A DNA stretch of 64,000 bases from Spirochaetota bacterium (GTDB lineage: Bacteria; Spirochaetota; UBA4802; JAFGDQ01). Within the stretch, counting starts at the first letter, position 1. Every line of letters begins with the position of its first letter. The position numbers were made by a program, and so were the translations under genes. Of this stretch, positions 44,194 to 64,000 are shown in pieces. The stretch spans positions 1-64,000 of the forward strand of contig JAZDKB010000019.1 in NCBI GenBank assembly GCA_043803405.1. The letters are read 5' to 3'. Below the pieces are notes generated by a model. The model was not told where the DNA came from, did not search any database, and saw only the letters and a list, made by a program, of their open reading frames with translations.

Positions 44194-44346
44194 AACTTTC
44201 TCCTTGTTTATTTATTTTAAAATATTTTGTTTACTTGTATTATTTTATTTATAACAAATAAAAATTACTGTTCTTATTGCTTTTCTTTAAATAAATTTTT
44301 AATAGTTAAGATAGTAAAATGTTATCTTGTAGTTTAAATTGAATAT

Positions 44347-44811: not shown

Positions 44812-44850
44812 AAAATATCTCCATTGTTAATTTTTTATTAAATTTCTGGG

Positions 44851-44885
44851 TATAAGTGAAAAAATTTGGGAGATCGTCACAAAAA
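44851..44885 (-). promoter_or_regulatory. Putative ECF sigma promoter, copy 2
   Basis: Minus strand TTTTTGTGACGAT-N13-TCACTTATA, matching 49454-49488. Confidence 0.6.
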
Positions 44886-45000
44886 AAATGAGGAATTATT
44901 TAAAAAAATTGTGTTTTTGGTAAGAAGTATGCTGGAATATAATTTTTAAAAAGCTGAGGGTTTATTAATCTATTTAAGTTTTATTAAATTATCACTATAA

Positions 45001-45975: not shown

Positions 45976-46050
45976 AGGAATTACCTTTTGAACATAATAA
46001 TTGATCATGGTTTATAACATAGATGTAACCTTCATATAGGATGTTATATT

Positions 46051-47022: not shown

Positions 47023-47049
47023 AAATAAAACCTATTATTATAAAAGATT

Positions 47050-48042: not shown

Positions 48043-48119
48043 ATATATTTTATAATATTTTTGTAATATTTTTAATATATAATCAAAATTGTCAACTTAG
48101 TCTTTGTTTTCGAGAAAAT

Positions 48120-48920
48120 TTATTTCCATTCAATTTCTTTAAGGATAGTTTCTGCAATGCCAGTGCATTTAACATCGATTTCATTAGCTGAATCAATTGT
48201 TTCGGTAACGCCGAAAATCACTTTTGAGTCTCCTACATCAATTACTTTCGCAGTGATAATTATTTTTTTTCCAAGACCGGACACTGAACCTGAAAGAATT
48301 CTGTTAAATCTAAGTCCCTTCTGGTTTTTGCTTAGATCAATAACCTTTCCTTGTCCAAGTGTGCGTAAAAGTTCATTATGTATATTATCTGTTACAGTTT
48401 TTGATAAGCTGCTTTCAATATTTTTTGCTGAAAAAAGATTTACACCCAGCCTGTATTTAACATTTTTATTATCACTCAAAATAGATTTTTCTTGAATTGC
48501 CTTATTCTCATCTTTTATAATATCTTTTAAATGTTTAGAGTTATCCTGTTCTGCGCTGAAATCAACCAATATTTGACTGTCGGACTTGTCGGATAATTCA
48601 GAGTTATTATTCTTTATATATTCAGCGGAAAATAATATTGCTGCTGTTAATATTCCGGCTGTGATTATTGAAATAATACCCAATATTATTTTACTTTGTT
48701 TAATGGAAAACCTAAGTTTTAGTTTATAGGAAAGAAAAAATATCCTGACAGCCAGGCCATAGATTAAATTATATTCGCCAAAATTCTGTAGTGTTTTAAT
48801 AAGTGCTTTTTGTTCATAACGAACAATAAATACCTTCACATCATTAGGCAGGAACTGCTTAAATCTGAATCTTAGTAAAAGCTTTTCAAATGTGCTTATG
48901 TTATTAATGCCATTGCTCAT
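48120..48920 (-). CDS. Putative anti-sigma factor with single TM and periplasmic FlgO/CsgG-like domain
   Basis: Overlaps the ECF stop codon; one TM; GSVSGLGKKIIITAKVIDV. Confidence 0.65.
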   Translation of the reverse strand: MSNGINNISTFEKLLLRFRFKQFLPNDVKVFIVRYEQKALIKTLQNFGEYNLIYGLAVRIFFLSYKLKLRFSIKQSKIILGIISIITAGILTAAILFSAEYIKNNNSELSDKSDSQILVDFSAEQDNSKHLKDIIKDENKAIQEKSILSDNKNVKYRLGVNLFSAKNIESSLSKTVTDNIHNELLRTLGQGKVIDLSKNQKGLRFNRILSGSVSGLGKKIIITAKVIDVGDSKVIFGVTETIDSANEIDVKCTGIAETILKEIEWK

Positions 48921-49432
48921 AGAAGATCCTCAATATTCCTGATGCCTTTTTTACTGAGATTGTCGATTATTTTATCAACTATATGCCTGTATTTATACTC
49001 TACCTGGCGTTTAGTAAGTCCCATTTGCCTTCCGGCCTCAGTATAGCTATAGTTATAAACAGCAACAAGATCGAATAGATTCTTTTCTTCATCGCTATTG
49101 AAATTGGCCATGTCTTCCATAGCTTCGCTAATTATTATCCGGGCATCTCTGAATCCGTTGACGAACGTTAAACTTATATCTTTAAAAACATCGTCGATAT
49201 CAATATCTCCTTTCTCCTTTCTATAAAATTCTAATACAACGTTTCTTAAAGTGCCATAAAGCCATTTGCGGCTATCAATAATTTTTTCATAATTTTCAAA
49301 GAATCTTATAAATACTTCCTGGCAAATATCTTTAGTGTCATCTATATTCTCAACCTTGGTGTAAACAGTGCTGAATATCAATGAATAATATCTTTTGTGA
49401 TCTTCAGTAAACCGGTCTTTTTTTTTGCTCAT
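48917..49432 (-). CDS. ECF sigma-70 factor
   Basis: DICQEVFIRF, WLYGTLRN (region 2); YSYTEAGRQMG (region 4); 171 aa. Confidence 0.85.
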   Translation of the reverse strand: MSKKKDRFTEDHKRYYSLIFSTVYTKVENIDDTKDICQEVFIRFFENYEKIIDSRKWLYGTLRNVVLEFYRKEKGDIDIDDVFKDISLTFVNGFRDARIIISEAMEDMANFNSDEEKNLFDLVAVYNYSYTEAGRQMGLTKRQVEYKYRHIVDKIIDNLSKKGIRNIEDLL

Positions 49433-49453
49433 TGTTTATATGTTGTATATAAA

Positions 49454-49488
49454 TATAAGTGACTTTTTAATATAAATCGTAACAAAAA
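49454..49488 (-). promoter_or_regulatory. Putative autoregulatory ECF promoter
   Basis: Minus strand TTTTTGTTACGAT-N13-TCACTTATA, about 20 bp upstream of the sigma start. Confidence 0.6.
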
Positions 49489-49888
49489 TTTATTGTTAAG
49501 AAATTGAATTAAATGGGACACTTTTTGATAATCCATATATATAAAACTAATATTATTTAGCTTTAAAGATTAGGATTCATAGGATATCCTATGTTATGAA
49601 TTGTAAAATGAAGTATTGGTGAATATATGGGTATTAATCATCCAGGTTAATATTCAATAAAATATTTTTACTGATTCTAAATGAAGAAGTTTTACTTTCT
49701 TCAATAAACCGATGTAATGAATAAAGTTTTTATACTATATTTAATTAATAATATTTTTGTTTTCTACGAAAATAATACAAATTATAATTTTTGTTATACA
49801 AAAACAAGTATTTTTTAGTTAATTTTTAAGATTCATCCCTCAATTCAAGATAAATACAGGGTTTTAAATCATTTACTATTGTTTGAAT

Positions 49889-50719
49889 TTAATAATATTT
49901 TACTTCCATTTTAATTTTGTTGTAAATTTCTTGCTGGTGCGGTTCCCAATGAGTTATGATTCTCTTGTACTCTTTTTTAGGTAATACAATTATTCCACTG
50001 GTTTTAGTTTCCCTAACTGAAAATGATGAAATCAGATTAAATATATTTTTTAATTTTATTTCAAAATTATTTTTTTTATCTTCATCATCATATAAAGAGT
50101 TTGATAAATCTAAATTTTTTTTAAATTTTGAAAAAATATCACCAAGACTTTTCCCCTGATCTAAAAACCATATCTGTGACCATAGGTCGTATGGTCTATT
50201 GGCAATAGGAGTGCCAGTCATTATTACCCTTCGTGCAAACGTAGGGGCAATTTTAAAAAAAGATTTTGTTAGTGAAGATTTTGGATTTTTTAATTTTACG
50301 GATTCGTCTAAAATAATTCCAACTGGTCTTGTCTTATTAAATAAATCAATTCTTTCAATTTCACTTTTTATAACTTCATAATTGCAAAGAATAACTTTGG
50401 CAGGACTATTAAAAACATAATAATTTGAGTGCTTATTCTGAGATAATATTTTCGGATGCAGATAAGTGTGAAAAGATAATTCTTTTTCCCAATTCTTTAA
50501 CAAACTTTTTTTTACTACTATAAATACTGTGTCTATTATCTTTTTTTCAAACCAGTATAAAATTAAATCAATAGCAATTTTGGTTTTTCCTAATCCTTGT
50601 TCGTGAAATATTGCTGCATATTCTAAATCACATATTTCATCTTTTGCGTTTTTTTGGTATGGAAATGCCGCCAATTTTTCCTTATAATTTGGTTCAATTT
50701 TTAATTTTATTCTTCCCAT
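49889..50719 (-). pseudogene. SNF2-family helicase, N-terminal domain only (truncated)
   Basis: EQGLGKT, DES, MTGTP, DLWSQ present; stops at 276 aa with no helicase C-terminal domain visible in downstream frames. Confidence 0.75.
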
Positions 50720-51168
50720 ATGGCGGAGTAATTTTTAATTTCTAAATTGATAATATCACAGATAATTATATAATTAATATCTTTTGCATCTATTTCAATA
50801 TCATTTAAGAAGTATTTAATTAACTGATTTGAATTCCTTAAATTTTTCCAAGGGACAGCAAGAATAAATAATGAGTTTTCATTACTTTTACAAAATTTTA
50901 AAAATGCCTTTATTTGATCTTCTGCATGATTCCAATATTTTTCTAATTCTTGACTTATCTTCGCTTCACCAATAACATAATTTTTATTACTTCTATAATT
51001 TATTCGAGCATATATATCCGGACAATAATTTTCAATTCTTTTAGGTTTGTTTATAATTGTTGAGTCAGATGTATCACTCATCAATAAAACATTATTTGAA
51101 TTATATTTTGAGAATATCCATTCCTTTATATTCTGTACAAGTAATATATGCTTATCAGATTCTGGCAT
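50707..51168 (-). CDS. Small PD-(D/E)xK-like nuclease candidate
   Basis: PDIYA...IGEAK motif. Confidence 0.55.
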   Translation of the reverse strand: MPESDKHILLVQNIKEWIFSKYNSNNVLLMSDTSDSTIINKPKRIENYCPDIYARINYRSNKNYVIGEAKISQELEKYWNHAEDQIKAFLKFCKSNENSLFILAVPWKNLRNSNQLIKYFLNDIEIDAKDINYIIICDIINLEIKNYSAIWEE

Positions 51169-51180
51169 CGATCATCTATA

Positions 51181-52206
51181 TTAAGACTCAATAAATTTAC
51201 ATAATTCTATCAATTGATCTCTTGCATCAAATAAATCTTGTACTTCTGCTGATTCTCTTTCGTCTCTTAATTTTTGAGATTCTGACCATTGCATTGACAT
51301 AATCTTATTTGATAATTCTTTTGCTAATTGTTCTAATTTTGCATTTAGTAAGAATAAATTATCAGTTGGTTGAGGTGGGGCAATGGCATCCAATGCTTTT
51401 TGGACAGCATCTTTACCCTTTGTTTTTATAAATATTTCCCTGCTTTCTTTTTTAGGTAGAATAACAGGTAATTTCCTTACGTCTTCTAATCGTTTAAATT
51501 TTAAATCAATAACCCATTTTGCAAAATCTTTAAACGTAAAATTAGCATCGACTATAGCTTTTTTTACAGGAGTTCTCTGTAATTCAACAAAAGCTGAAAA
51601 CCTTGATGGATCAAAGTCGGAATCACTTTCAAGTTGAGACTTATATTCGTTTTCCATTACCAAATATGCTTCAATATAATCCTCTACTTCTTTTTTTCGT
51701 CCCCCGCAAAAATCAATTATCTGATTCATTGTAAGATGCTCAGAGTTTCTCAAATATTCAAGATATTTGGCTTTTGAGTACGGGTCCCATGCTCTTGGAC
51801 CAACAAGATGAGATTGTAACCTAATAGCATCAATTTCTTCTGGTGTCATTGCTTTATAAACAATAGATAGTATTTTATCCCATTTTCCGGGTATTTTTTT
51901 ATCATGGAACTCTTTATAAATTGCCAACCGAGTATTCCCTTCGATTACAACATATTTCTTATCAGACTTATCATTTACAATGATTGGATGTATAATCCCA
52001 CCATTAGTTTTAATAGACGTCTTTAAACTTTGAAAAGTGACACCATTCCCATCCGTTTGACTATCCCCAACTCCTAATGCCAATGCAATTTGTTCACTTG
52101 GGATATCATCACCATAAAATTCCAAGAATTGAGCAATACGAGGATTTGACTTATCTAATTCAATATCCTTTATTGGAATTAATTTAATACTATATTCTAT
52201 ATTCAT
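51181..52206 (-). CDS. ParB/Srx N-terminal domain protein
   Basis: LDKSNPR, GGIIHPIIV, VIEGNTRL, WDPYSKA. Confidence 0.75.
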   Translation of the reverse strand: MNIEYSIKLIPIKDIELDKSNPRIAQFLEFYGDDIPSEQIALALGVGDSQTDGNGVTFQSLKTSIKTNGGIIHPIIVNDKSDKKYVVIEGNTRLAIYKEFHDKKIPGKWDKILSIVYKAMTPEEIDAIRLQSHLVGPRAWDPYSKAKYLEYLRNSEHLTMNQIIDFCGGRKKEVEDYIEAYLVMENEYKSQLESDSDFDPSRFSAFVELQRTPVKKAIVDANFTFKDFAKWVIDLKFKRLEDVRKLPVILPKKESREIFIKTKGKDAVQKALDAIAPPQPTDNLFLLNAKLEQLAKELSNKIMSMQWSESQKLRDERESAEVQDLFDARDQLIELCKFIES

Positions 52207-52570
52207 ATTTACCTCTTAATTTATGAGTTTAGATAATGACCAATTATTATTTCCATTATAAAGTTTTAGAATTAGGCGATTTTAATAACATTGCTTTATA
52301 ATTTTAATAATAGAAAAATATATTTTCTAAATTACAAGGACAATTTAAAAATAATTCAGTTTTTGAATCCTCTTTCAGAGTAATTATTTTAATAGTTATC
52401 TGAAATAAAATTTTTATAAAAGAACTTGATGATTTATAAATATTTTTATATATTTCCATCAAATAAAACGAGACATAATATAGCGGTTCAGGAATTAGAA
52501 ATAATTGTTCAAATTAAACGATACAAATGTTATTTTTAACTATTTAGGATTATATTCGGAGATATTATAA

Positions 52571-53893
52571 ATGGAAATGTTAAATAGCAGAGAACTATCT
52601 ATTTGTATATGGATAGGAATTTCATTTATTATATGCATAATATTTTTTTCCAAGATAAAAAAATCTATTTTTGATGTGCTTAAAGCATTTTTCTGTGCAA
52701 AGTTACTCATCCCTCTATTATTTATGACCATTTATATAATGGGTTGCATTTATGGTTTAAATTACCTTAGACTTTGGAATACCGATCAAATAAAGAATAC
52801 AATTATCTGGTATTTGACAACTGCTGTTGTAACATATTTTAATAGTCTTGAAATTGCAAATGAGCTTCATTATATAAGAAAATGGATTAAAGATAATTTA
52901 AAAGTAATAGTCTTTCTCCAATTCATATTCAATTTTTATACTTTTCACATTATCATTGAATTTTTATCTGTACCAATTTTTTTCATAATTGGCGGAATGC
53001 AGGGATTTATTCAATCAGAGAAAAATAATAAAAACACAAAATTATTAAAACCTCTTAATTTTTTAATCGCATTATATGTTATATCAGTAATAATATTTAC
53101 TGTATATAGTTTAGTTACAAATTTCAATGAATTTGCTCAATTAAAAACTATCTACGATTTTGTAGTCCCAATAATACTTTCATTATTGATATTACCGTTT
53201 ATTTGCATATTATCTATATTTTCTGATTATGAAATCGCATTTTTAAATTTTAAACATCATTTAAAGGATATATCTTTATTGAGATTTGCTAAGATAAAAT
53301 CATTGATAAAATTTCACATGAAGTCAAAAAATTTATTAAGATGGTCAAGTAATTTATTCACAGAAAATATTTCATCAAAGTCAGATATACTTACTTCAAT
53401 TGAAAACTTTAAAAAACTACTTCTTATCGAAAAAAATCCCCCATCTGTTTCTCCTGACAAAGGTTGGTCTCCATATTCTGCTATTAAATTCCTTGATTCT
53501 GAAGGAATAAAAACAGGGCATTATAAACATTCAATAGATGATGAGTGGTTTGCGTGTTCTCCTCACACTGAAATCAATAAAGGGAAAAACTTTTTATCAA
53601 ATAACGTCTCTTATTATGTTGAAGGTAGTTCCAGTATAGCCAAAAAGCTATTATTAGTTTTGGATATATTTGAATTAGAAAATAGTAAAGACGCAGTTAA
53701 ACTATTTTTACACTTGATAAGAATATTATTTAAAAAATCAACAGAGAAAGAACTCCCTCATGATTTTGAAAAGGCTATTATGAACAGAATAGATTCTGAA
53801 TCTGTAATCGATGCATTTAAAATTATATTAAAGAAAAATAATACACTGACTAACAAAGCATATTTTTTAGAATTTTCAATCGAGAAGATTTAA
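52571..53893 (+). CDS. Multi-pass membrane protein with soluble C-terminal domain
   Basis: About six to seven TM helices in the N-terminal half. Confidence 0.65.
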   Translation: MEMLNSRELSICIWIGISFIICIIFFSKIKKSIFDVLKAFFCAKLLIPLLFMTIYIMGCIYGLNYLRLWNTDQIKNTIIWYLTTAVVTYFNSLEIANELHYIRKWIKDNLKVIVFLQFIFNFYTFHIIIEFLSVPIFFIIGGMQGFIQSEKNNKNTKLLKPLNFLIALYVISVIIFTVYSLVTNFNEFAQLKTIYDFVVPIILSLLILPFICILSIFSDYEIAFLNFKHHLKDISLLRFAKIKSLIKFHMKSKNLLRWSSNLFTENISSKSDILTSIENFKKLLLIEKNPPSVSPDKGWSPYSAIKFLDSEGIKTGHYKHSIDDEWFACSPHTEINKGKNFLSNNVSYYVEGSSSIAKKLLLVLDIFELENSKDAVKLFLHLIRILFKKSTEKELPHDFEKAIMNRIDSESVIDAFKIILKKNNTLTNKAYFLEFSIEKI

Positions 53894-53944
53894 TGCAAAA
53901 AACAGATAATTATTCTCTGACATTTGATGTTAAATGAGACAGTA

Positions 53945-55096
53945 ATGAAAACAGGTAGAAATGAACCTTGCCCTTGTGGTAGCGGATTAAAATATAAGAA
54001 GTGTCATGGTTCACCAAACATGAAGAACAAAATCTTTAATTCTACAATTAACCAAATAAATCAAGAAATTATTAAACAAAAAGTAAGAGAAGATAAACTG
54101 GGTGATGTTCGACCTACGATAAGTACTGAATTTAAAGGACGTAAAATAGTTGCTGTTGGCAACCAAATACATTACGCCCCCAGAGAGAGATGGAAAACAT
54201 TCCATGACTTTCTTTTTGACTATATAAAGCATTGTTTTGGTATCGAATGGGCGAATAAGGAATTGAAGAAAAAATATGAAGAGATGCATTCGATATTACA
54301 ATGGTATCAGGACTTATGTAAATTTCAACAAGCACATATGGTTGAGAAACATGAAATATATTCCGCTGATAGCACTGGTTCTGTAGGAGCCTACCTTGCC
54401 TTGGCATATGATTTATATATATTGAGACATCACTTAGCTTTACAAGAGCGACTAATTACCAGATTAAAAGATAAGAAGCAGTTTCAGGGTGCTCGTTATG
54501 AGGTATATGTAACTTCATCTTTTATTAAAGCAGGTTTTGATATATCATTTGAAGATGAAACGGATAGGACGATTTCACATTGTGAATTTGTAGCTACTCA
54601 TAAAGCATCAGGTAACAAATATTCGGTTGAGGCAAAAAGCCGTCATAGAAAAGGATTGCTTGGACAAGATGGTGAGCAAAGAAATTGGGATGATCAAAAA
54701 TTATGGATAGGAACTCTTCTAAGAGATGCTTTAAAAAAAAGTGCTTCATATCCGAGAATCATTTTCATCGATGTTAATATGCCCCCTGAAAAAGGAGAAG
54801 TGTTTAAGAAGAGTTGGGTAGATGGCTTGATGAAAGAAGTAAGCCGTGTTGAAGTTGATATTATTAGTGGGGTACCCTGTCCCCCTGCATATTTATACTT
54901 CACAAACCATCCAAATCATTACGTAGGTAACAATGAAGTTGAACCAGCAAAAGATTTCTTTTTTACGGCAATCAACATCCAAGAATTTAAACAAGGTAGT
55001 ATTGAAAATGCAAGAAAAACACATCTTCATCAATTTATACTTTGGGATTCAATAAATTCTCACTGTAAAATTCCAGAGAGCTTTGAGAATTCGTAA
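53945..55096 (+). CDS. SEC-C motif protein with possible PD-(D/E)xK-like domain
   Basis: [19 protein letters not shown]; later CEF...VEAKSR. Confidence 0.7.
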
Positions 55097-55165
55097 AAAT
55101 TTCAATTTCAGTTCGTTATCTTATAAAGTATGCCCAGTGGTACACATAACTTCAACTTTAAATAT

Positions 55166-55184
55166 AAGTTGACGTATAGTTGAC
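55166..55184. promoter_or_regulatory. Putative integrase arm-type sites (right)
   Basis: AAGTTGACGTATAGTTGAC. Confidence 0.6.
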
Positions 55185-55323
55185 CAGCTCAATCCACGTT
55201 AAATAATTTAAAGCAAAGTATATCAATTTTCTCCTATATTTTTAATAATTTTTGTTTAATTTTTAAATCAATTTTACACATATTCAAACAATTTACAGCA
55301 AACCTAATTAAGATTGCATATTT

Positions 55324-55372
55324 GCTTGAATCGCACTCAAGAGGTAGAGGGTTCGACTCCCTTCAGCTCCAA
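55324..55372 (+). repeat. attR core (49 bp; duplicated 3' part of tRNA-Ala)
   Basis: GCTTGAATCGCACTCAAGAGGTAGAGGGTTCGACTCCCTTCAGCTCCAA, identical to 31081-31129. Confidence 0.92.
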
Positions 55373-55486
55373 AAAAGAAGTTGTCCCAAAAGAATGCCAC
55401 AGAGTCACTGAGGCACAAATCCCCCTTTCAAATTTACTGTATATAATATGTCTTTTAAAATTTTCCTCTCCCGAAAGTTATTTTTA

Positions 55487-55924
55487 TCAGCCATAGCTGA
55501 ATTGATGTGGCTTTACAGCATTCCGGAACGTGAAGCGAAGGTGAAGCGAAGCTGAAACGGAGGGGAAGCGAAGCATTCCGGCAGAGGGTATCTTTCTTTG
55601 TTGTGAAATAATGTTAAGAGAATTATATTTATATCCTGCCGGAATACGCTCTTTCATAAAGTCCGATATATAAAGATTATACCCGCTCATGTTCAGATTG
55701 CGCGCTTTTCTATTATATTTATTTTTTTCTTCTTCAGCTAAAGCCTGCCATGATTTAACAGCTTTTGCAAATGATTGTCTGTTCCTTCTCTGGGTAAAAG
55801 TATTCGGATTGCATGGTATTATATAGCTGCGTATGCATTGCGTATTCAGTCTTTTATACCACACAACATTGCCCGCACGTCCGCTTACTTTGCTGAACAA
55901 TGGATTTAGAGTTATTATTGCCAT
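55487..55924 (-). CDS. Small basic hypothetical protein
   Basis: VSGRAGNVV...NPNT..Q...R..F..AV..WQ...GYNLYIS. Confidence 0.6.
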   Translation of the reverse strand: MAIITLNPLFSKVSGRAGNVVWYKRLNTQCIRSYIIPCNPNTFTQRRNRQSFAKAVKSWQALAEEEKNKYNRKARNLNMSGYNLYISDFMKERIPAGYKYNSLNIISQQRKIPSAGMLRFPSVSASLHLRFTFRNAVKPHQFSYG

Positions 55925-56066
55925 AAATTTATCCTGTTAACAGCAGGAAACTCGATCCCCTGCTATAAAATATCCCCTCATATATATATACGATTTTAGG
56001 TCACGTTTTTGTGACTTAACAATGAGGATTGTTTAGAAATACCAGAGAAATAAGATTTTTTTTTGA

Positions 56067-56273
56067 TTTTTAAGAAAAAAATTATTAACGGGGGAAATAG
56101 AAAAGAGAAACTGCAAGGACGGTGTTAATATAATTCTTCCTGAATATATGCTGAAGAAATACGAGGGAGATCCTCTCAAAGTTGATTTTGATTTAAAAAA
56201 TGCGAAGTATAAAATTTATCAGAAATCAGGAGATAAGATTATTTCTTCAGGCAGCCTAATGCTTGAATTATAA
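56067..56273 (+). pseudogene. Start-less open frame, probable gene remnant
   Basis: 68 sense codons (...LTGEIEKRNCKDG...SGSLMLEL*) with an upstream in-frame stop and no start codon at its 5' end. Confidence 0.3.
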
Positions 56274-56323
56274 TGTAAATAGTAGCCTATTTTAAATAAT
56301 TCTTGCTTTTCTCGTCTTTTACT

Positions 56324-56361
56324 CTTCACTATTTGGCCTGTATTGCGTTTTATTTATCGGT
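56324..56361 (+). repeat. 38-bp direct repeat, copy 1
   Basis: CTTCACTATTTGGCCTGTATTGCGTTTTATTTATCGGT; 36/38 to 59523-59560. Confidence 0.85.
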
Positions 56362-56459
56362 CTAATGTAAATGCTCGTTAATCAATAAAAAAAGTTGATC
56401 TTCTGAATGGGAATATTGTACTTTCCTGTATTGACATAAAAACTTTGGAGAGGTGATGT

Positions 56460-57914
56460 ATGCATAAAGAGAAGAAATGTATAGTAATAACCTCGGAACA
56501 GTTCAAAAATGAAATATTAAAACCCGGGCAGAAAGCCATAGCTGTCGGGACAATTGTGGGGATATCGCTTTTTTCGAGTGGGTGCGCTACTTTTTATGAT
56601 GCAAGAGATGAGAGATCTGTTGTAAAAATTGAGAAATACGCTGAAAGCAATGATGTTGAGGTTAGAAAGGGAGTCGCAGAGAATAAAAATACACCAGCCG
56701 GAGTATTAAAGAAACTTGCCAGTGATCCTGACACCTGGGTTAGGGTAGGAGTCGCAAAGAATAAGAATACACCTGTTGGAGTATTGGAAAAACTTGCCAG
56801 TGATCGTGATACCTGGGTTAGAAGAGCCGTAGCATCAAGTGAAAACACACCTGTAAAATTACTGGTAATACTTACTTATGATTCTAATTCGAATATAAGA
56901 AGTGATGTCGCAAAGAATAAAAACACGCCCGCAAGTTTACTGGAGAAACTCTCTATCGATGATCCATATAGTGTCGCAGAAAATGAAAACACGCCAGTCA
57001 GTATATTGGAGAAACTATCTAATAATCCTAGTCCTTATGTTAGGAGGAATTTGGTAAGTAATAAAAACACACCCATAAGTGTACTGGAAAAACTCTCTAA
57101 CGATTCTGATATTGATGTACTGTGTGCTGTCGCAAATAGTAATCATACACCATTAAGTATCGTGAAAAAAATCTATTATTCACTAGAAGGAAAGGGCTAT
57201 TCCAAGTCTATGCCTGCTGCCAAGTCTAGAATCAACAGCGAAAAAGAAAGTATTGCTTATGAAGAACAGAGGTTAAGGGACATTAATATAAGAAAATCAG
57301 CTGATCCCAAAACCCCTCCTGATATACTTGAACAGCTCGCCAGTGATCATTATAACGATATAAGGTGCAACGTTGCACAAAACAACAATACGCCTATACG
57401 TGTTCTTGAAAAACTTTCTAATGACTCTGAAGAGCGTGTAAGGAATTGCATTCCATATAATGTTAGGGAAAAGTTTTATGAGGATAATAAGAAAAAAGCA
57501 AATGATCAGAATACATCTGCTAATGAACTTGAAAAACTCGCAGCTAATTTAAAATCTGAAATAAGAAAAGCTGTTGCTGCTAACCGGAAAACCTCACTAA
57601 GTGTACTTGAACAGCTCGCAAACGATTCTGATCAGGATGTAAGACTTGCTGTTGAAAATAACAGCAACACCCCAGCCAGTGTTAAGAAAAAACTTGCCGT
57701 AAGAAGAGAAGAAGAAAAGAAATTAGCCGAAAAACAACTTGCCGAGAAGATAAGACTCGAACAGGCTGCGAAAAAGTATCAGGGTTCCGGGAGTACGGGA
57801 TGCTCTGGCTGTACTGGTTGTATATACAGCTGTACAGTAAAATGTACGTATGGTTGCACATTTGGTTGTACTGCATACTGTACTGCTTACTGTACTGTAA
57901 TGACGGCGAGGTGA
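56460..57914 (+). CDS. LRV/HEAT-like repeat lipoprotein with C-terminal Cys-repeat (putative radical SAM target) tail
   Basis: GGAGAGG RBS; hydrophobic segment ending LFSSGC; ~26-aa VR..VA.N.NTP..VLEKL repeats; tail CSGCTGCIYSCTVKCTYGCTFGCTAYCTAYC. Confidence 0.8.
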   Translation: MHKEKKCIVITSEQFKNEILKPGQKAIAVGTIVGISLFSSGCATFYDARDERSVVKIEKYAESNDVEVRKGVAENKNTPAGVLKKLASDPDTWVRVGVAKNKNTPVGVLEKLASDRDTWVRRAVASSENTPVKLLVILTYDSNSNIRSDVAKNKNTPASLLEKLSIDDPYSVAENENTPVSILEKLSNNPSPYVRRNLVSNKNTPISVLEKLSNDSDIDVLCAVANSNHTPLSIVKKIYYSLEGKGYSKSMPAAKSRINSEKESIAYEEQRLRDINIRKSADPKTPPDILEQLASDHYNDIRCNVAQNNNTPIRVLEKLSNDSEERVRNCIPYNVREKFYEDNKKKANDQNTSANELEKLAANLKSEIRKAVAANRKTSLSVLEQLANDSDQDVRLAVENNSNTPASVKKKLAVRREEEKKLAEKQLAEKIRLEQAAKKYQGSGSTGCSGCTGCIYSCTVKCTYGCTFGCTAYCTAYCTVMTAR

Positions 57915-58003
57915 ACATCGCGCAGTATTCATTGTACTTCCAATCGTGTATACTGAGGATTTTTTAAGTACATACATCCGCTGTAACCGGAGTTTAAAAT
58001 TCA

Positions 58004-59452
58004 ATGTCTTCCAATAAATCATTACAAAAGTTCCAAACGGCATCTGAAATTGTCTACCTCAATAAAAATGGCGATACAATTTTCTTTAATGCCGAAAATG
58101 TAAATCCTGTATATTTCCCTCAAGGCGGCGATGATGCAAAATCGATAATCCGGTCGCTGAAAGATAAAGGGTCGTTTACATCTGAGTCAGCCGCAACTGT
58201 ATGCCCGGCTGAACTCTTTGACTTCTTTCTTGAGCATAACATTATAGTTGAGAAGAATCAGAATTTCCAGAATACAGTCAAAAAGTGCGATAACTGCGAA
58301 TGCGGACAGAAGTCTGTGAGCCGCAGCATGTATCTGCTGCTCAGTCATTCATGCAACCAGAAATGTATATACTGCCTTAACGGCCGGGAAACCTACAATT
58401 CAGATCATGGCATGATGATGACAGAGGGAGTTGCTTTTAAATCGGTAAAAACAGTTTACGATTCAATATCCCCTTATGGCAATCTTGAAATTGTTTTTTT
58501 CGGAGGTGAACCGCTTCTTAACTGGTCGCTTGCAAAAAAAGTGATTCATTACTGCGAGGGTATTTTGAAGCCCTCCTCTCCGGACAAAAAGGTTAATTAT
58601 CATCTCACGACAAATCTGACTTTATTCCCTGATGATCTCGTTGAATACGCGCTTATGTATAACATTACTTTTCTTGTAAATATTGACGGCCCGGAAGAGA
58701 TTCATAATAAAACCAGGCCTTTCCTGAACGGCAGCGGAAGCTTCAAAAGATCCGTTGAAAATATTTCGCGACTGAATAAAGCAGGAATATCAGTTGCTCT
58801 CAGGGCTACCGTTACAAAATATAATCAGCATCGCATGCTTGAAGTTACAAGAACGCATAAAGATATCGGCGGAGCCGGTTCTGCTTTTGTCCCGCTTAAT
58901 GCTATAGATTCCGACGAAGAAACCCTGCCTGCTGATTTATGCCCTGACCCGAAAGTGTTCTCAAAAGGGCTGCAGGACGTTTATAATTCAGGCATTTGGG
59001 AAACTCAAAATCTTTATCCATTCAATGAATATACCGGAAGACTTGTTCCGGGTTATCGCAATACATGGGCATGTGGGGCACCTCATGGTAACACCCCTGT
59101 TATCACCGCGGATGGAGATATTTTTTCATGTATATATCTTGTGGGGATTGAACGATTTAAAATCGGCCATATCAACAACAACGAATTTCCTTTTGCATCC
59201 GTAGTCAATGATATGCTTGAGATAACTAACGTAAATAGTTCTGAAGAATGTGCCAACTGTGGCTTCCGATATCTATGCGGCGGTGGTTGTCCAGTTGGGC
59301 GATTTACCATCGCGGGCAATCCGAATGCTTCGGAAGAGATTAAACTTTACACTCGCGAAATTTCCTGCGCTGTGAGTAAAACAGTTCTGACGGAACTTAT
59401 CTGGAGCTTTGCGAAACAGAAAAAGGATATGCTGCATCTTGGAAGGCGATAA
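58004..59452 (+). CDS. Radical SAM/SPASM peptide/protein maturase
   Basis: CNQKCIYC, FFGGEPLL, TTN, IDGP..IH; SPASM CGA...DGDIFSC...CANC..RYLCGGGCP...C; ~100-aa N-terminal extension. Confidence 0.92.
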   Translation: MSSNKSLQKFQTASEIVYLNKNGDTIFFNAENVNPVYFPQGGDDAKSIIRSLKDKGSFTSESAATVCPAELFDFFLEHNIIVEKNQNFQNTVKKCDNCECGQKSVSRSMYLLLSHSCNQKCIYCLNGRETYNSDHGMMMTEGVAFKSVKTVYDSISPYGNLEIVFFGGEPLLNWSLAKKVIHYCEGILKPSSPDKKVNYHLTTNLTLFPDDLVEYALMYNITFLVNIDGPEEIHNKTRPFLNGSGSFKRSVENISRLNKAGISVALRATVTKYNQHRMLEVTRTHKDIGGAGSAFVPLNAIDSDEETLPADLCPDPKVFSKGLQDVYNSGIWETQNLYPFNEYTGRLVPGYRNTWACGAPHGNTPVITADGDIFSCIYLVGIERFKIGHINNNEFPFASVVNDMLEITNVNSSEECANCGFRYLCGGGCPVGRFTIAGNPNASEEIKLYTREISCAVSKTVLTELIWSFAKQKKDMLHLGRR

Positions 59453-59522
59453 TTTTAGTCTTTTCTGCTTACCAGGGGATATTGTTTATTTCAGTAAGTT
59501 CTTGATTTTTTCTGTTTTTATG

Positions 59523-59560
59523 CTTCACCATTTGGCCTGTATTGCGTTTTATTTATTGGT
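59523..59560 (+). repeat. 38-bp direct repeat, copy 2
   Basis: CTTCACCATTTGGCCTGTATTGCGTTTTATTTATTGGT. Confidence 0.85.
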
Positions 59561-59708
59561 ATAGTGTTACTAACCGTTCTTTCTAAAGTATTTTTATTAT
59601 TTTAATCTGTGTTTCTGACAATCGGCTCTGTGCAATTCAGTAAGTTATCCCGTGGATTATTGATTAATAAAAAGACAAATTGTAAATACATAACTCCGGA
59701 TCTTTAAT

Positions 59709-60317
59709 ATGCTGATCGATAAAATATTTTACGGGAAATATATAGAATACATTATACTTTTCATATTATCTATACCGTTGGCGATTGGACTTCTGAAATA
59801 TTTTTTCATGCTGCGAAAAAATACATACATGAAAAAGTCAAAAGCAATTGACTATCTGCTATCTATCGCAATGGTATTTATATCTTTGTTTCTATATGCT
59901 TATCAGGACGAAATAACAAGAAACACGAAAGTCTGGATTGTTATTCAGGGAGAAAAGAATCCGGTTAAAATTGAAAAAGTATTATTATTCAAAGGCACTG
60001 ATTTTTATTCCGTAGAAGGAAAGCATTTCAGGATCAAAACCAATCCTTCGGGTTATGCTGTTGTAAATGATTCGGACAGAATACTCATACTTGAGCCTGT
60101 CGTATATTCCCAGGTGAGTGTTCTGCCGGAAGCAGCTCAAAAATTTAAAAATTTCCATTTTAATAACTATGTAGAAAAAGGCAGCATAATATATTTTCAA
60201 AAACTTAAGTATTTTGGTTTCGAAGATGAAGCTCCTCCCGAATCAAGGGAAATTTCGATTCAGGGAAACGAACCCGGTTTTGGAAGGATGGAACTGGAAT
60301 GCTGGCTCAGATGGTAA
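59709..60317 (+). CDS. Hypothetical membrane protein (2 TM plus soluble domain)
   Basis: 202-aa ORF. Confidence 0.6.
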   Translation: MLIDKIFYGKYIEYIILFILSIPLAIGLLKYFFMLRKNTYMKKSKAIDYLLSIAMVFISLFLYAYQDEITRNTKVWIVIQGEKNPVKIEKVLLFKGTDFYSVEGKHFRIKTNPSGYAVVNDSDRILILEPVVYSQVSVLPEAAQKFKNFHFNNYVEKGSIIYFQKLKYFGFEDEAPPESREISIQGNEPGFGRMELECWLRW

Positions 60318-60351
60318 TATTAATCTATCAAACAATTTATTATCTAAATCA

Positions 60352-60798
60352 ATGAAAAACATAATCAATAAAATCGATGTATTCTTGCATGACAAGCGTA
60401 TCTTTAACCGGCCATTAGGCTTGTGGGTAGTACTTATCATTCTTGGAATGTGGAGTATTGCGAAAGCGGTGGATTATATCATGTTTATTTTTGGAGCGGC
60501 TTCTATCCCTGAAATAATAGCCAGCACCGTAATAATTCCTATAAATTTATATTGTATTACCGGGTTGTGGAATTATAAAAGAAAAGCCTTTGAGGCTGTA
60601 AAATACTGGCTCTGGCTTTCCTATATACTCGCGGTATTCATTTTACCAGGGTATGTATCGGTATTTCCGGAAGAGCGGGGAGATGCACGGTTGTTAATGG
60701 CAGTTATTATGTCACCAGTTCTTATAGCATGGATAATCTTAAGATTTTCATCATTGAAATCAATGTTCAAAGATGATGAAAACAAAAAAATCAAATGA
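60352..60798 (+). CDS. Hypothetical 4-TM membrane protein
   Basis: Likely start MKNIINK; RPLGLWVV; overlaps the next gene. Confidence 0.6.
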   Translation: MKNIINKIDVFLHDKRIFNRPLGLWVVLIILGMWSIAKAVDYIMFIFGAASIPEIIASTVIIPINLYCITGLWNYKRKAFEAVKYWLWLSYILAVFILPGYVSVFPEERGDARLLMAVIMSPVLIAWIILRFSSLKSMFKDDENKKIK

Positions 60799-61508
60799 AC
60801 AAAATAATAGTCTCTATTGGATGTATCTCCGGCACAAAGGACTATGAGATCAATGAGCATCTCTACTCAACTAAATACCGCGTGACTTCCGAATATCAAA
60901 TGCTTACTTATGAATTCCCAATTCCTTATGATCATCCGGTAAATATTAAACATGTTTGTGAATTATGCAGAGACGAATTATCAATAGAGCTCGCGAATAA
61001 TACCCTCCTCATTAAGAGACAGTTATTATTTCCGGTTCTTTATCTCCTGGGATCGGGAGGAAGTCTGTATTTTTACAACAAGGCTGTTACGGGGACTGAT
61101 TTACATTGGACAATTGCAATCATTCTTACAATCGCAGGGACTCTTTTTTGCGGATATATGTCTTTTATACTGGGATCACTTGAATTTGAAAACAGGGTAG
61201 GTATAAAAAAAGGAAATAAAAAATATGATTACCATCCATTCTCTATTTGGAAGCATAAGATCATCAATCCCGATGAAAAAGCTCCTCTTCTGCGCAAATA
61301 TAAAATTACACGGCTTGCGATAGTGTGTATTTTTATTCTGTATCTGTATTTTTTTTATGGAATCGTTATTGAGAGAAAGGGACAGGAAGTCTATGATGCG
61401 TTAATCAGTCTTGGTATTGTATTCGGTATAGGAGCCTTATCGTATGGCCTTTTAAATGGGATTTATGAAATGATAAAAATAGTAAGGAAGAGACGGAATA
61501 AAGATTGA
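60795..61508 (+). CDS. Hypothetical membrane protein
   Basis: CELC motif; four TM segments. Confidence 0.55.
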   Translation: MNKIIVSIGCISGTKDYEINEHLYSTKYRVTSEYQMLTYEFPIPYDHPVNIKHVCELCRDELSIELANNTLLIKRQLLFPVLYLLGSGGSLYFYNKAVTGTDLHWTIAIILTIAGTLFCGYMSFILGSLEFENRVGIKKGNKKYDYHPFSIWKHKIINPDEKAPLLRKYKITRLAIVCIFILYLYFFYGIVIERKGQEVYDALISLGIVFGIGALSYGLLNGIYEMIKIVRKRRNKD

Positions 61509-61598
61509 ATTGTACAATAATGTTTCAAAAGCAAACGCTTGGGAAATATAAATTTTACCGAGGCAGAAGAGAAAGTAAAAAAATTTCTAACATTAAAT

Positions 61599-61810
61599 GT
61601 ATGCCGTGGAAAGTTGGACAACAAATGATGGAGTCCGGATGTTAAGGATGACCCTTCGGGATCGGCTTGCAGGAGCAGGTTCCAAACCGCCGGAAGCTGC
61701 TTTGTTAAAGAGAGAAGGTAGTTAATGTTTCGGTTAAAAGGCTTCGATTAAAGGAGTCAGGTGAGCTAGCAGGAGGCGAACGAAAGTGAACCGATCGGAG
61801 AGGTGTCGGG
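61599..61810 (+). mobile_element. Group II intron 5' fragment (part of domain I)
   Basis: Starts GTATGCCGTGGAAAG; contains GATGACCCTTCGGGA, GCAGGAGCAGGTTCCAAACCGC, GGAGTCAGGTGAGCTAGCAGGAGGCGAACGAAAGTGAACC; recognised from memory of bacterial group II intron 5' ends; no RT or domain V/VI seen. Confidence 0.65.
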
Positions 61811-62106
61811 AGTGGGAACATATTATTCCTGAAACTCTTTCCATAAATGAAAGATGCCCTGCCTGCGACAGAATTCAGGGAATCCATAACCAGATTTGGG
61901 CGTGCAGAACTTGCAACATTAGGAAAGGCACCAGGGGCTTATACGATTTTATCCGCGACTTGTATCCAAAAGCAAAGAAAATATCAGACGTGCTGCCTGC
62001 TCTACTTGAAAAGAAATATCTTAAGACTATTTATTACTGCCACCAGTGCAAGGGCACGCTTGACTGGGACGGTAAGTGGATTTCCGTGCCGGATTTGGAC
62101 TTGTGA
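61786..62106 (+). pseudogene. HNH endonuclease C-terminal remnant
   Basis: WEHIIP...CPAC...HNQIWACRTCNIRKG; the apparent start lies within intron-like sequence. Confidence 0.6.
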
Positions 62107-62109
62107 AAT
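62078..62109 (+). repeat. 32-bp direct repeat (left) flanking the GxxExxY unit
   Basis: GGATTTCCGTGCCGGATTTGGACTTGTGAAAT; 30/32 to 62822-62853. Confidence 0.85.
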
Positions 62110-62821
62110 GATGTCTGAACCTTGATTCGCAGGATTAAAGAATTAACTTGATTTTCTGTTTTACAGAAGTACGATATGTCTGAATACTGAACTTTAAAGA
62201 TAATCTTTGTCTGAAAAAAATTTTATTATCCTATAAAATATGTTCAGCTATAGATGAAACACTAAATGATCTATAAAGATTTAACGCAAAAAATTATCGG
62301 ATGCGCGATGCAGGTACATCGGATATAGGAAATGGATTTCAGGAAGTAATATACCAGCGGGCGCTGGCAATTGAAATGGAGTATGCAGGTTTAACATTTG
62401 AACGTGAAAAAGAAATGGATATATTTTACCGTGAAGAACGCATCGGGTCGCGCAGGGCGGATTTTTTTGTTGAAAATAAAATCATGGTTGAATTGAAGGC
62501 AATCGTAAAGCTTGAAGATGTACATCTTGCGCAGGCAATGAATTATCTTGAAGCATATAATATGGAAATAGGATTGCTTATAAATTTCGGGGCAAGGAGT
62601 TTAGAATTTAAAAGAGTGCATAACAGACGTCTGAACCATGATTCGCAGGATTAGTCTGGTTTACTGATGTCTGAACCTTGATTCATGGGATTATAGGATT
62701 AACCTGATTAGCTGTTTTGCAATAGTATGGTATATCTGAAAACTGAACTCCGGAAATAATCAATGTTTGCGAAAATCATGAAAATCCTTTAATCAGGTTA
62801 ATCATGGTTCAGACAGTGGTA
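62110..62821. mobile_element. Putative GxxExxY nuclease mini-element with hairpin repeats
   Basis: Terminal IR TGTCTGAACCTTGATT (62112-62127) / AATCATGGTTCAGACA (62800-62815); 96-bp imperfect repeat 62110-62205 vs 62666-62761. Confidence 0.6.
62266..62654 (+). pseudogene. GxxExxY protein, frameshifted near codon 20
   Basis: MIYKDLTQKIIGCAMQVHRI then TAG; the shifted frame continues GNGFQEVIYQRAL...RADFFVE...VELKA...GLLINFG. Confidence 0.8.
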
Positions 62822-62853
62822 GGATTTCTGTGCCGGATTTGGATTTGTGAAAT
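62822..62853 (+). repeat. 32-bp direct repeat (right)
   Basis: GGATTTCTGTGCCGGATTTGGATTTGTGAAAT. Confidence 0.85.
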
Positions 62854-63015
62854 TTGTGTATGGATTCCAAAGAGAAGAGTTTTATTATTAATGAAAAGCT
62901 TGAATAAATAGAAGTTATTACACTATGAAATTTTTAGCAAATGGACATCCTTATCCGGCAAAAACGCGACTTTCTAAACTTTACCGTACCTGGCACCAGG
63001 AAGTTCTGTCTTTAA

Positions 63016-63041
63016 AGGGGAGGCGCGAGGCCTGCCCCTAC
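63016..63041 (-). repeat. GTAG-type REP element
   Basis: Minus strand GTAGGGGCAGGCCTCGCGCCTCCCCT. Confidence 0.55.
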
Positions 63042-63297
63042 AGGGGTATCTTGCATTTCGAGAAAAGGAGAGGGGGAAAAGAAGGTCTGAACCGCGAAGT
63101 AAAAGGAGGATTCGCACAGGGATTTCATAGATTATGCTTTTCTTTAATTATATTAATTTGAGAGTTGGACAGATGGTATTTGTGGACAAAAAAGCCTTCA
63201 TATTTGCTAGAAGGATTTGTATAGAAGTAATACAAATACTAATATTTTTTTAATTAACTACAATGTCGGTGTTCAAAAAAAATAAAAGCTATATAAA

Positions 63298-64000
63298 ATG
63301 AACAGATCATTCTATTCAGACTCAATACTTAATTTCTTAAAGTCCAGTGACAATGAAATAATTGGCAAACTTAGCCGGAATCCATTTGGGGCTGAAGAAA
63401 CACAAGTAAATGCTTGGGCTGAGCAGATTAGAATTCTTAAGCAAATTTTATTAAAATATGACGGTGCTGTTTATTTTGAATTTTCTATTCCTCGCATGGG
63501 GCAAAGAATAGATACTGTAATATTAATAAAAGGAGTAATTTTTATTTTAGAATTTAAAGTCGGAGAAAAAGACTTTAAAGCAAGTAACATAGATCAAGTA
63601 TGGGATTATGCGCTTGATTTAAAAAATTTTCACGAAACTAGCCACAATTTCTTCATTGCACCAATTCTAATTGCAACTGAAGCAAAACACACAAATCCAT
63701 TCGTTGTAAAAACAACAAAAAATGACAAGCTGCTTGAACCAATAAAAGCAAATCCTCAGTTACTTACAAAAGTAATAGAACAAGTATTAGCCTTTGCAAA
63801 TGTAGAAAGAATTGAACCTGATAAGTGGGAAAAAGGTACTTATAGACCAACTCCAACAATAATTGAAGCAGCTATGGCATTGTACAATGGGCATAGTGTT
63901 GAAGAAATAGCCAAATGTGAATCGGACGATATTAACCTAGGTTATACTACAAAAGCAATTTCTGAAATCATTGAATCCGCAAGAATAAATAAAAATAAAG
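63298..64000 (+). CDS. DUF2075/Schlafen-like helicase-nuclease, N-terminal part (runs off window)
   Basis: MNRSFYSDSILNFL...QVNAWAEQI...FEFSIPRMGQRIDTVILI...LEFKVG...QVWDYALDLKNFHE...YRPTPTIIEAA; absent from the ORF track because it has no stop in the window. Confidence 0.75.
   Translation, partial: MNRSFYSDSILNFLKSSDNEIIGKLSRNPFGAEETQVNAWAEQIRILKQILLKYDGAVYFEFSIPRMGQRIDTVILIKGVIFILEFKVGEKDFKASNIDQVWDYALDLKNFHETSHNFFIAPILIATEAKHTNPFVVKTTKNDKLLEPIKANPQLLTKVIEQVLAFANVERIEPDKWEKGTYRPTPTIIEAAMALYNGHSVEEIAKCESDDINLGYTTKAISEIIESARINKNK

Follow-up and report, generated by a model that had tools for sequence, protein, structure and literature searches.

A candidate two-gene protein-stapling cassette in a Spirochaetota bacterium pairs an LRV-repeat protein bearing a cysteine-threonine tail with a predicted radical SAM/SPASM maturase

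Gene organization of the cassette

The stretch analyzed in this study (the window) comprises 64,000 nucleotides from a Spirochaetota bacterium (contig JAZDKB010000019.1), in which two adjacent genes on the + strand encode a leucine-rich repeat variant (LRV) protein with a cysteine-rich tail and a radical S-adenosylmethionine (SAM) enzyme. The first open reading frame (ORF), the proposed substrate, extends from 56460 to 57914 (484 aa) and the second, the enzyme, from 58004 to 59452 (482 aa); both ORFs and the gap between them were found as a preliminary description of this DNA had claimed. A ribosome-binding site (GGAGAGG, 56447..56453, + strand) can be read from the sequence 6 bases 5' of the ATG. 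The 89 bp intergenic spacer (57915..58003, + strand) is free of terminator-like sites on the + strand, the sole such site being located at 58865 within the enzyme gene, and the counts from the promoter and terminator scans were at the level of shuffled sequence. The gene pair is a real, coherent cassette. When the flanking ORFs were searched for peptidase and transporter families none was found, in line with the earlier claim that the cassette holds no dedicated peptidase or transporter.

The substrate protein

The N-terminal segment of the substrate (residues 1-42; 56460..56585, + strand), which was annotated from a profile and from a co-fold, consists of a KKCIVITSEQ motif, a weakly hydrophobic stretch and a lipobox-like ISLFSSGC. 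The highest 13-aa mean hydropathy of this segment is 1.78, and the weakly hydrophobic stretch of 13 residues leads into an S-S-G-C end, with LFSSGC occupying residues 37-42 and the Cys at position 42.

The body of the protein is an LRV solenoid of about 11-12 repeats of 26 aa (56646..57704, + strand), annotated from Pfam and from the xTP anchors, ten of which occur in the body mostly 26 aa apart. Membership of the LRV repeat family was found at E 8e-43 and 142 bits (PF01816; cut-off 21.6), together with a match of 53.5 bits to LRV_2 (PF25591). Within the LRV gene, a 78-bp tandem duplication (56660-56854; 2.5 copies, 76-86% matches) spans two LRV units and suggests a recent repeat expansion. 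A Lys/Glu-rich, helix-like stretch and a GSGSTG linker, both read from the translation, precede the tail (57687..57800, + strand).

The tail, which is the proposed core, was annotated from the sequence and from neighbour loci (57801..57914, + strand) and contains nine Cys followed by VMTAR and the stop codon. The Cys are found at residues 448, 451, 454, 458, 462, 466, 470, 474 and 478 (nucleotides 57801-57911) with CxxC/CxxxC spacing, only five others being present in the remaining 447 residues, and the last 2.6 tail units form a 12-bp tandem repeat. The LRV body, the lipobox-like LFSSGC, the linker and the nine-Cys tail had all been claimed in the preliminary description and are borne out by the translation. 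We counted Cys-Thr/Ser pairs in the 17,941 six-frame ORFs with a length of 60 aa or more from the whole 3.98-Mb genome. The substrate ORF has eight such pairs in its best 40-aa window and the next-best ORF has four, so the Cys-Thr tail is beyond chance.

A search with the whole protein gave 218 matches, the best 120 of which are ordinary LRV proteins; none of these 120 homologues carries a Cys-rich tail, one of them having five Cys in an N-terminal zinc-ribbon-like stretch. The search with the tail only (residues 425-484) returned two candidates, neither of which was scored. In a protein atlas, the nearest structural neighbour of the last 80 residues was a CopL-like metal-binding cluster, which falls below the bar of the tool, and no usable feature match was obtained.

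The maturase

Three domains were annotated in the enzyme. The first, covering residues 1 to about 100 (58004..58303, + strand), resembles the recognition element (RRE) that binds leaders of peptides made by ribosomes and modified after translation (RiPPs), as judged from the model, the alignment with CteB, the co-fold interface and the conserved residues. The AlphaFold model, built from an alignment of 32 sequences, has a mean local confidence score (pLDDT) of 89; its N-terminal domain consists of strands (10-38) followed by helices (42-77) with a block pLDDT of 89-95, and residues N29, P35 and G41 of this domain are invariant or nearly so (P35 invariant, G41 nearly). The radical SAM core (58313..58903, + strand) carries the motif C117-x3-C121-x2-C124, all three Cys being invariant in the 32 aligned family members, and matches PF04055 over residues 113-272 with 54 bits against a cut-off of 29.5, which places it in the radical SAM family. 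The SPASM-type C-terminal domain, with a C-terminal helix (59051..59452, + strand), contains seven Cys that are invariant in the 32 sequences (C357, C376, C416-x2-C419-x5-C425-x3-C429 and C455); no match to the Pfam SPASM model was reported for the enzyme, and its C-terminal region aligns with the SPASM region of CteB and of the anaerobic sulfatase maturase (anSME).

The best match from the PDB and Foldseek searches is CteB (E about 1e-21), which aligns over 462-478 columns with the N-terminal domain included, followed among the solved structures by TigE, anSME and ChlB. The family profile matches CteB at E 6.6e-43. From the Cys motifs, the model and the full-length match to CteB, the enzyme is predicted to have the RRE, radical SAM and SPASM architecture of a peptide maturase, and the earlier claim of an RRE/SPASM maturase with an N-terminal extension of about 100 aa agrees with the strands-plus-helices model of this domain.

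Among the best 25 of the 66 NCBIfam families matched, the top scores belong to peptide maturases, and all 25 lie under their curated cut-offs. The PapB family (NF047865) scores 168 bits against a cut-off of 340, the nif11 maturase 160 against 519 and the SCIFF maturase (TIGR03974) 151 against 425; the neighbouring gene moreover encodes a 484-aa protein and no SCIFF peptide. Lower scores were obtained for the QhpD type (120, cut-off 453), the anaerobic sulfatase maturase (114, cut-off 349), the sactisynthase RumMC (80 bits) and the CrpC family (TIGR04463; 65, cut-off 525). In a separate search, the CXXX-repeat maturase family TIGR04115 scored 40.3 bits, its cut-off being 350. The enzyme is thus placed outside the PapB, SCIFF, CrpC and TIGR04115 families as these are currently delimited.

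Co-folding of the enzyme with the N-terminal segment

The enzyme (alignment of 32) was co-folded with substrate residues 1-60 (alignment of 4) alongside three controls. The interface score ipSAE was 0.69, 0.71 and 0.71, whereas the best control reached 0.00. In calibration the ipSAE mark was passed by 116 of the 157 complexes of known structure and by two of the 215 mismatched pairs, counts that are only approximate here since our own alignments were used. The runs share at least 55% of their contacts and the pLDDT of the partner is at least 53. Substrate residues 29-39, which run from the hydrophobic stretch to the lipobox, lie along enzyme residues 33-42, a stretch that includes P35 and G41, and residues 6-19 make further contacts. 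The interface on the enzyme side is made up of residues 26-47 and 64-78. This predicted docking has the classical RRE-leader geometry. By prediction only, the enzyme is therefore an RRE-dependent RiPP maturase that binds its leader as an added strand.

As the co-fold places a segment ending in a lipobox on the RRE, it suggests that one and the same segment acts as signal peptide and as RiPP leader, so that the general export route together with signal peptidase would stand in for a dedicated protease and transporter. The genome encodes a TatC (185 bits, over the cut-off) and an Lgt-like gene that scores 100 bits, under the cut-off of 118.9.

The enzyme family and its neighbouring genes

A total of 441 relatives of the enzyme were found at E <=1e-3 among 4055 candidates scored. 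The 120 matches listed include the window's own enzyme; identity to it ranges over 41-76% among the remaining 119, with 71% for the closest one of full length. Named sources of these relatives are Eremiobacterota, Leptospiraceae, Thiodictyon, Thermodesulfitimonas, Nitrospirota, Desulfobacterales and Geobacteraceae. By sequence comparison, the enzyme thus belongs to a large unnamed family that is found in many phyla. It is single-copy in its own genome.

We compared 28 loci with a family member obtained from scans of genomes and metagenome contigs, namely L005-L026 (35-55% identity) and L090-L095 (29-60%). A metagenome scan with the single enzyme sequence found nothing, while the scan with the alignment yielded L090-L095 as the only family members among 80 loci. 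In viral contigs 26 loci were found, all with at most 31% identity and matching the core only, and the family was not seen in phage contigs.

An adjacent same-strand ORF rich in Cys-Thr/Ser, defined as having at least six Cys in 40 aa and at least three Cys-Thr/Ser pairs, was found in 11 of the 28 loci (L006, L008-L012, L018, L021 and L091-L093). In two loci a twin-arginine-like leader precedes a shorter Cys core (L015, L019), while five have a Cys-rich precursor of 57-87 aa (L020, L022, L025, L026, L095), two a Nif11 precursor with one Cys (L005, L007; Pfam Nif11, 51.6 bits) and three a protein with the leader motif and few Cys (L016, L017, L094). At L090, where the enzyme is 60% identical, a downstream ORF starts with a KKCI-type motif as in the window and runs off the end of the contig; the remaining four loci (L013, L014, L023, L024) have too little flank to judge. 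The partner gene lies upstream of the enzyme at some loci and downstream at others. The bodies of the partners differ. The partner at L006, a Leptospiraceae metagenome-assembled genome (MAG) with a 53% identical enzyme, shares the N-terminal motif of the window protein and combines LRV repeats (22.4 bits with Pfam LRV, slightly over the cut-off) with a Cys-Thr tail; that of L010 has eight TPR units; the 420-aa partner of L018 has no Pfam match; and the partners of 81-179 aa have no extra body. The prediction that relatives of the maturase would keep a Cys-repeat neighbour while its body is swapped was hence borne out at the 11 loci, with LRV, TPR or no body.

In a tree of 21 family enzymes and 4 outgroups (L012, L013, L014, L023, L024, L092, L094 and L095 were left out), the enzyme family forms one clade (100/100). 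The subclade of the window (100/100) comprises L090, L006, L005/L007, L011 and L091 and mixes Spirochaetota, Vulcanimicrobiota and Pseudomonadota.

Three sets of loci depart from the arrangement in the window. In a Geobacter MAG (L010:6494-8518, 674 aa) the Cys-Thr repeat comes right after the leader and is followed by the eight TPR units and a long charged tail, so that the order is reversed relative to the window. In two Vulcanimicrobiota MAGs (L005:6591-6851 and its counterpart in L007) the gene after an enzyme of the window's subclade (55% identical) encodes a Nif11-leader precursor with a single-Cys core; since the same subclade adjoins such a precursor, the enzyme family appears to serve very different substrates. 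The proteins at L016:6282-7595, L017:6472-7905 and L094:235-567 combine a leader-like N-terminal motif with a near absence of Cys, and they lack Cys-Thr repeats; the enzyme may act on them in another way, or they may be decayed or accessory partners.

Partner proteins at large and the LRV subtype

With a profile of 11 short partners we screened 1.84 billion representative proteins, a set of sequences without genomic context. The profile matched 127 proteins at E <=1e-3, of which 109 are Cys-Thr/Ser-rich by the above definition, 97 have an RR-x-hydrophobic motif within the first 120 residues and 13 are at least 250 aa long. Pfam was run on these 13 and on one 239-aa protein. LRV bodies with a Cys-Thr tail were found in P0349 (594 aa; 174 bits) and P0338 (335 aa; 46 bits), and also in the 199-aa P0279 (28.4 bits); P0349 and P0279 carry the full N-terminal motif. 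P0294 has a TPR body, P0350 matches bMG3 below the cut-off and the remaining eight long partners have no Pfam match. We also observed RHS repeats in P0266 (777 aa) and a PQQ-type beta-propeller in P0308 (553 aa), both with the same leader and Cys-Thr repeats. Partners in L008, L009, L012, L015 and L019 match TIGR04117 at 15-27 bits, all under its cut-off of 50.

The N-terminal segment of the main family is Tat-like (twin-arginine translocation), with RR-x-F-L, a hydrophobic stretch ending in x-S-V/L-F and then A-x-A or a lipobox Cys, and the L015 partner passes the cut-off of the TAT-signal model (18.0 against 16.7). The window protein, P0349, P0279 and the L006 partner instead have in common, in the same order, a K-K-C-I/F-x-x-T motif, a weakly hydrophobic stretch and an I/V-S-L-F/Y-x-x-G/K-C end, of which P0338 has the hydrophobic, lipobox end only. 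An N-terminal profile built from four other proteins of this subtype, with the window's own excluded, ranks the window ORF as the best of the 17,941 genome ORFs (E 9.6e-6; runner-up 0.008). Because this profile finds the window ORF and two broader ones do not do so convincingly, the window protein is, on sequence grounds, a distinct LRV subtype that is tied to the main family through its enzyme and its architecture.

The L006 partner, P0349, P0338 and P0279 also bear on whether body and tail truly belong to one gene. Public DNA reads of the locus came from two runs of one study with small shares (0.14 and 0.07). They gave four read contig pieces of 151-259 bases, which leave 57585-58808 uncovered, including the body-tail junction and the intergenic region. 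The reads therefore do not span the junction, and the fusion is supported by the four other proteins with the same LRV-plus-tail architecture. The Lys/Glu-rich stretch and the linker are not conserved among them.

Proposed mechanism

We propose, with a probability of roughly 0.6, that the pair is a two-gene protein-maturation cassette in which an LRV precursor with a leader-like N-terminus and a Cys-Thr tail is stapled by an RRE-radical SAM-SPASM maturase and then exported. By analogy with characterized maturases, the enzyme most likely cross-links the cysteine-threonine tail, and the links are probably ranthionine-type thioethers. The precursor would have three functional parts, namely the 42-residue lipoprotein-signal-like segment with the family motif, the LRV alpha-solenoid and the nine-Cys tail of CT-x-x units. 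In the cytoplasm, the RRE of the enzyme is predicted to dock on the N-terminal segment by beta-strand addition. SAM would be reductively cleaved, as in the nearest characterized enzymes, and the radical SAM core would take a hydrogen from a side-chain carbon near each Cys, most likely that of Thr in a T-x-x-C or C-T unit. The Cys sulfur would then close a small ranthionine-type thioether ring, up to nine times, again following the nearest characterized enzymes. Thr is the obvious candidate acceptor since it directly follows seven of the nine tail Cys; it lies three residues before the next Cys in six of the seven CT units and two before it in the other.

The general export machinery would move the stapled protein out, and signal peptidase II would cut before Cys42 to leave it lipid-anchored. 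In such a scheme the signal peptide would serve as the leader and the signal peptidase as the leader protease, and no dedicated transporter would be needed. If the protein is exported and then cut before Cys42, this would account for the absence of a protease or transporter beside the pair at all loci. At the surface or in the periplasm, the mature protein would form a solenoid with a stiff, chemically stapled rod at its end.

Several observations weigh against this reading. The distance between leader and core, about 400 residues across a folded solenoid, is awkward for a single enzyme molecule; it may be bridged if the unfolded chain is the substrate, by the curvature of the solenoid, or if the leader activates the enzyme in trans. 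The window protein has no twin arginine and a weak hydrophobic segment, its lipobox deviates from the canonical L-[AS]-[GA]-C and Cys42 is further from the N-terminus than the lipobox Cys of typical lipoproteins. With a general N-terminal profile of 40 partner leaders, the window ORF stays outside the 15 best genome matches (E up to 6.6), and the short-partner profile scores it at 14 bits and E 0.028 within its own genome. TIGR04117 has no match in the whole protein at E <=0.01 or in the last 74 residues at E <=1 (cut-off 50 bits). The passing co-fold may be partly due to likeness to solved RRE-leader complexes (CteB, SuiB, ChlB), and unrelated proteins, rather than other signal peptides, served as its controls. 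The chemistry may differ across the family, as the same enzyme clade occurs with the single-Cys Nif11 precursor of L005/L007. Finally, no public RNA runs containing the locus were found.

A broader reading, which we offer as tentative, is that the Cys-Thr repeat is a portable staple tag on unrelated exported bodies (LRV, TPR, RHS-repeat and beta-propeller) in many phyla. The RRE would read the hydrophobic core of the export signal and so hold the protein in the cytoplasm until it is cross-linked, much as Tat proofreading chaperones do with cofactor enzymes, the signal peptidase would be the leader protease, and in the window leader and core would act across about 400 residues.

Alternative readings

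The alternative that survives best, although we consider it unlikely, keeps the same enzyme and substrate and takes the N-terminal segment as only a RiPP-type leader or a membrane anchor, so that the stapled LRV protein would be cytoplasmic or at the inner membrane face. The missing twin arginine, the 25-residue charged region before the hydrophobic stretch and the maximum hydropathy of 1.78 are all consistent with it, as is the RRE being predicted to bind exactly the hydrophobic stretch; furthermore, a comparable Y-T-V-x-S-L-C stretch occurs in the short precursors of the sister clade, the leaders of which are plainly soluble. However, a lipobox-like Cys follows the segment not only in the window but also in L006, L009, P0338, P0349 and P0279, relatives have the RR-x-F-L and A-x-A ends typical of Tat signals, and both the TatC and the Lgt-like gene of this genome argue for export. 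The preliminary description had also raised a carrier-displayed RiPP, for which we found no support, as neither a protease nor a cleavage motif was seen.

A second alternative concerns the chemistry. The tail could be modified otherwise than by side-chain thioethers, for instance by Cys-to-alpha-carbon (sactionine) links, by carbon-carbon cross-links or by oxidation of Cys or Thr, and the scores of the enzyme leave some room for this, with all named families below their cut-offs, the anaerobic sulfatase maturase among them at 114 bits and two of the six CteB catalytic-site proximity positions kept. On the other hand, the families that score highest, PapB and SCIFF/CteB, are known to form ranthionines, whereas among the sactisynthases RumMC reaches 80 bits, and repeated Cys with a fixed Thr neighbour resemble the logic of in-line ranthipeptides, which have CX3D and NxxC motifs in PapA and NxxcA; the motif of CrpA is C-X-X-Q/D (PMC13692751). 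We therefore regard a chemistry other than ranthionine-type thioethers as improbable.

That the tail is a metal- or iron-sulfur-binding motif needing no enzyme, with the adjoining radical SAM protein acting elsewhere, is very improbable: Cys-rich tails often bind metal, the atlas neighbour below the bar of the tool is the CopL-like cluster and a metal-related role is suggested for CrpA by its authors (PMC13692751), but the enzyme family is paired with Cys-repeat genes in at least seven phyla, none of the best 120 LRV homologues has such a tail, no other ORF of like composition in the genome offers itself as a substrate, and metal binding after stapling is compatible with the maturation cassette proposed above.

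Genomic neighbourhood and origin

We read the two-gene cassette as horizontally acquired because of its absence from related genomes, its G+C offset and its mobile or defence-like neighbours. A search at E <=1e-60 through 400 further genomes from the phylum, among them two from the same genus and another two from the same family, did not find the enzyme. The G+C content of the cassette is 38-42%, against 24-35% upstream and 33-36% downstream, and the genes around it include a ParB-like nuclease-domain gene, an SNF2 fragment, a SEC-C-motif gene and a PD-(D/E)XK gene. No tRNA was found in a search of 44000-64000.

Upstream, on the minus strand at 49889-52206 (24-31% G+C), we observed a 276-aa SNF2-related fragment limited to the N-terminal part of the helicase, together with an ORF of 153 aa and a ParB-N-domain protein of 341 aa; this region looks like the remnant of a defence or mobile module adjoining the cassette. 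Further upstream (45001-48042), two tandem Kelch-repeat proteins (335 and 323 aa) are found beside a CsgG-like protein, with a fragment of an ECF-type sigma factor nearby. Downstream, after a 257-bp gap from the enzyme, 59709-61508 encodes three small putative membrane proteins of 202, 194 and 237 aa, two of which overlap; they have no family match and no conserved counterparts beside the Leptospiraceae enzyme. The downstream genes are not counted in the cassette, since the ORF at 59709-60317 has no similarity to the ORF after the Leptospiraceae enzyme (E 2.2).

Significance

If the proposed cassette is real in function, radical SAM stapling would not be limited to small secreted peptides or to one archaeal protein, and bacteria would possess a widespread means to harden a defined segment of their exported proteins. 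It would also define a large enzyme family that has so far been annotated just as 'radical SAM protein'. With only two genes and a short tail, the cassette would be a tractable model for an RRE enzyme with distant leader and core, for a signal peptide that doubles as a RiPP leader, and for the effect of Cys-Thr thioether ladders on protein stability or metal binding.

Comparison with known systems

The preliminary description ranked the pair as an undescribed system, which overstates the case: stapling by CrpC/CrpA has been published (PMC13692751) and TIGR04117 is already in NCBIfam. According to that report (September 2026), CrpC installs thioethers in CrpA, a 28.8-kDa Cys-repeat protein of Methanococcus voltae, and the links are of the ranthionine type at C-x-x-Q/D-type motifs (PMC13692751). 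As in the window, an RRE-radical SAM-SPASM enzyme adjoins a full-size protein, the C-terminal Cys repeats of which are thioether-linked in CrpA; the N-terminal region of the substrate aids binding and no dedicated protease or transporter is identified there (PMC13692751). The two systems differ in their repeats, which as described there are of 17 residues with C-x-x-Q/D in CrpA and which are 4-residue CT-x-x units in the window. The terms 'signal peptide', 'twin-arginine', 'secret' and 'export' are absent from the main text of PMC13692751. Its Supplemental Data set 1 lists multi-domain and bacterial CrpA homologues and may already include proteins such as the one described here. The Crp system is archaeal and relies on another enzyme family, whereas the window is bacterial.

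CteB with its precursor CteA (SCIFF, thermocellin; PDB 5WHY/5WGG) gives the best sequence and fold match to the enzyme among the solved structures and has the same three-domain layout. SCIFF precursors are short, at about 45 aa with six Cys, in contrast to the 484-aa protein in the window. The acceptor in thermocellin is Thr. Among the six residues near the catalytic site, four differ between the two enzymes, with L125/F166/T202/N226/I377/Y378 here and F/F/T/S/H/Q in CteB, the positions being mapped from the alignment as named in PMC10288494. The link in thermocellin is from S to the gamma-carbon and that in freyrasin from S to the beta-carbon, according to PMC10114670.

PapB, the maturase of the freyrasin precursor PapA, is the top NCBIfam score of the enzyme and lies under its cut-off. 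In PapA, in-line Cys-x3-acceptor units with Asp as the acceptor follow one another, and each of them forms a small ring; PapA is a short precursor that lacks a body domain.

QhpC, which is a subunit of the quinohemoprotein amine dehydrogenase, works outside the cytoplasm once it has been modified. Its maturase QhpD is a SPASM enzyme that puts beta/gamma thioethers into a protein subunit, as described in PMC10114670. QhpC is, however, a dedicated enzyme subunit with a cofactor, in contrast to the repeat tail found here on varied bodies.

Cxxx-repeat targets are recognized at the database level by TIGR04117 ('Cys-Xaa-Xaa-Xaa repeat radical SAM target protein') and TIGR04115 ('rSAM_Cxxx_rpt'), and our literature search found no experimental paper on these two families. 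A literature search on Cys-rich repeats and thioethers returned nothing relevant, and no literature linking ranthipeptide enzymes to Tat or lipoprotein signals was found. Set against these known systems, four features appear to be new, namely the enzyme family, the Cys-Thr module in its use as a tag for varied exported bodies, the subtype of LRV lipoproteins and the predicted overlap of signal peptide and leader.

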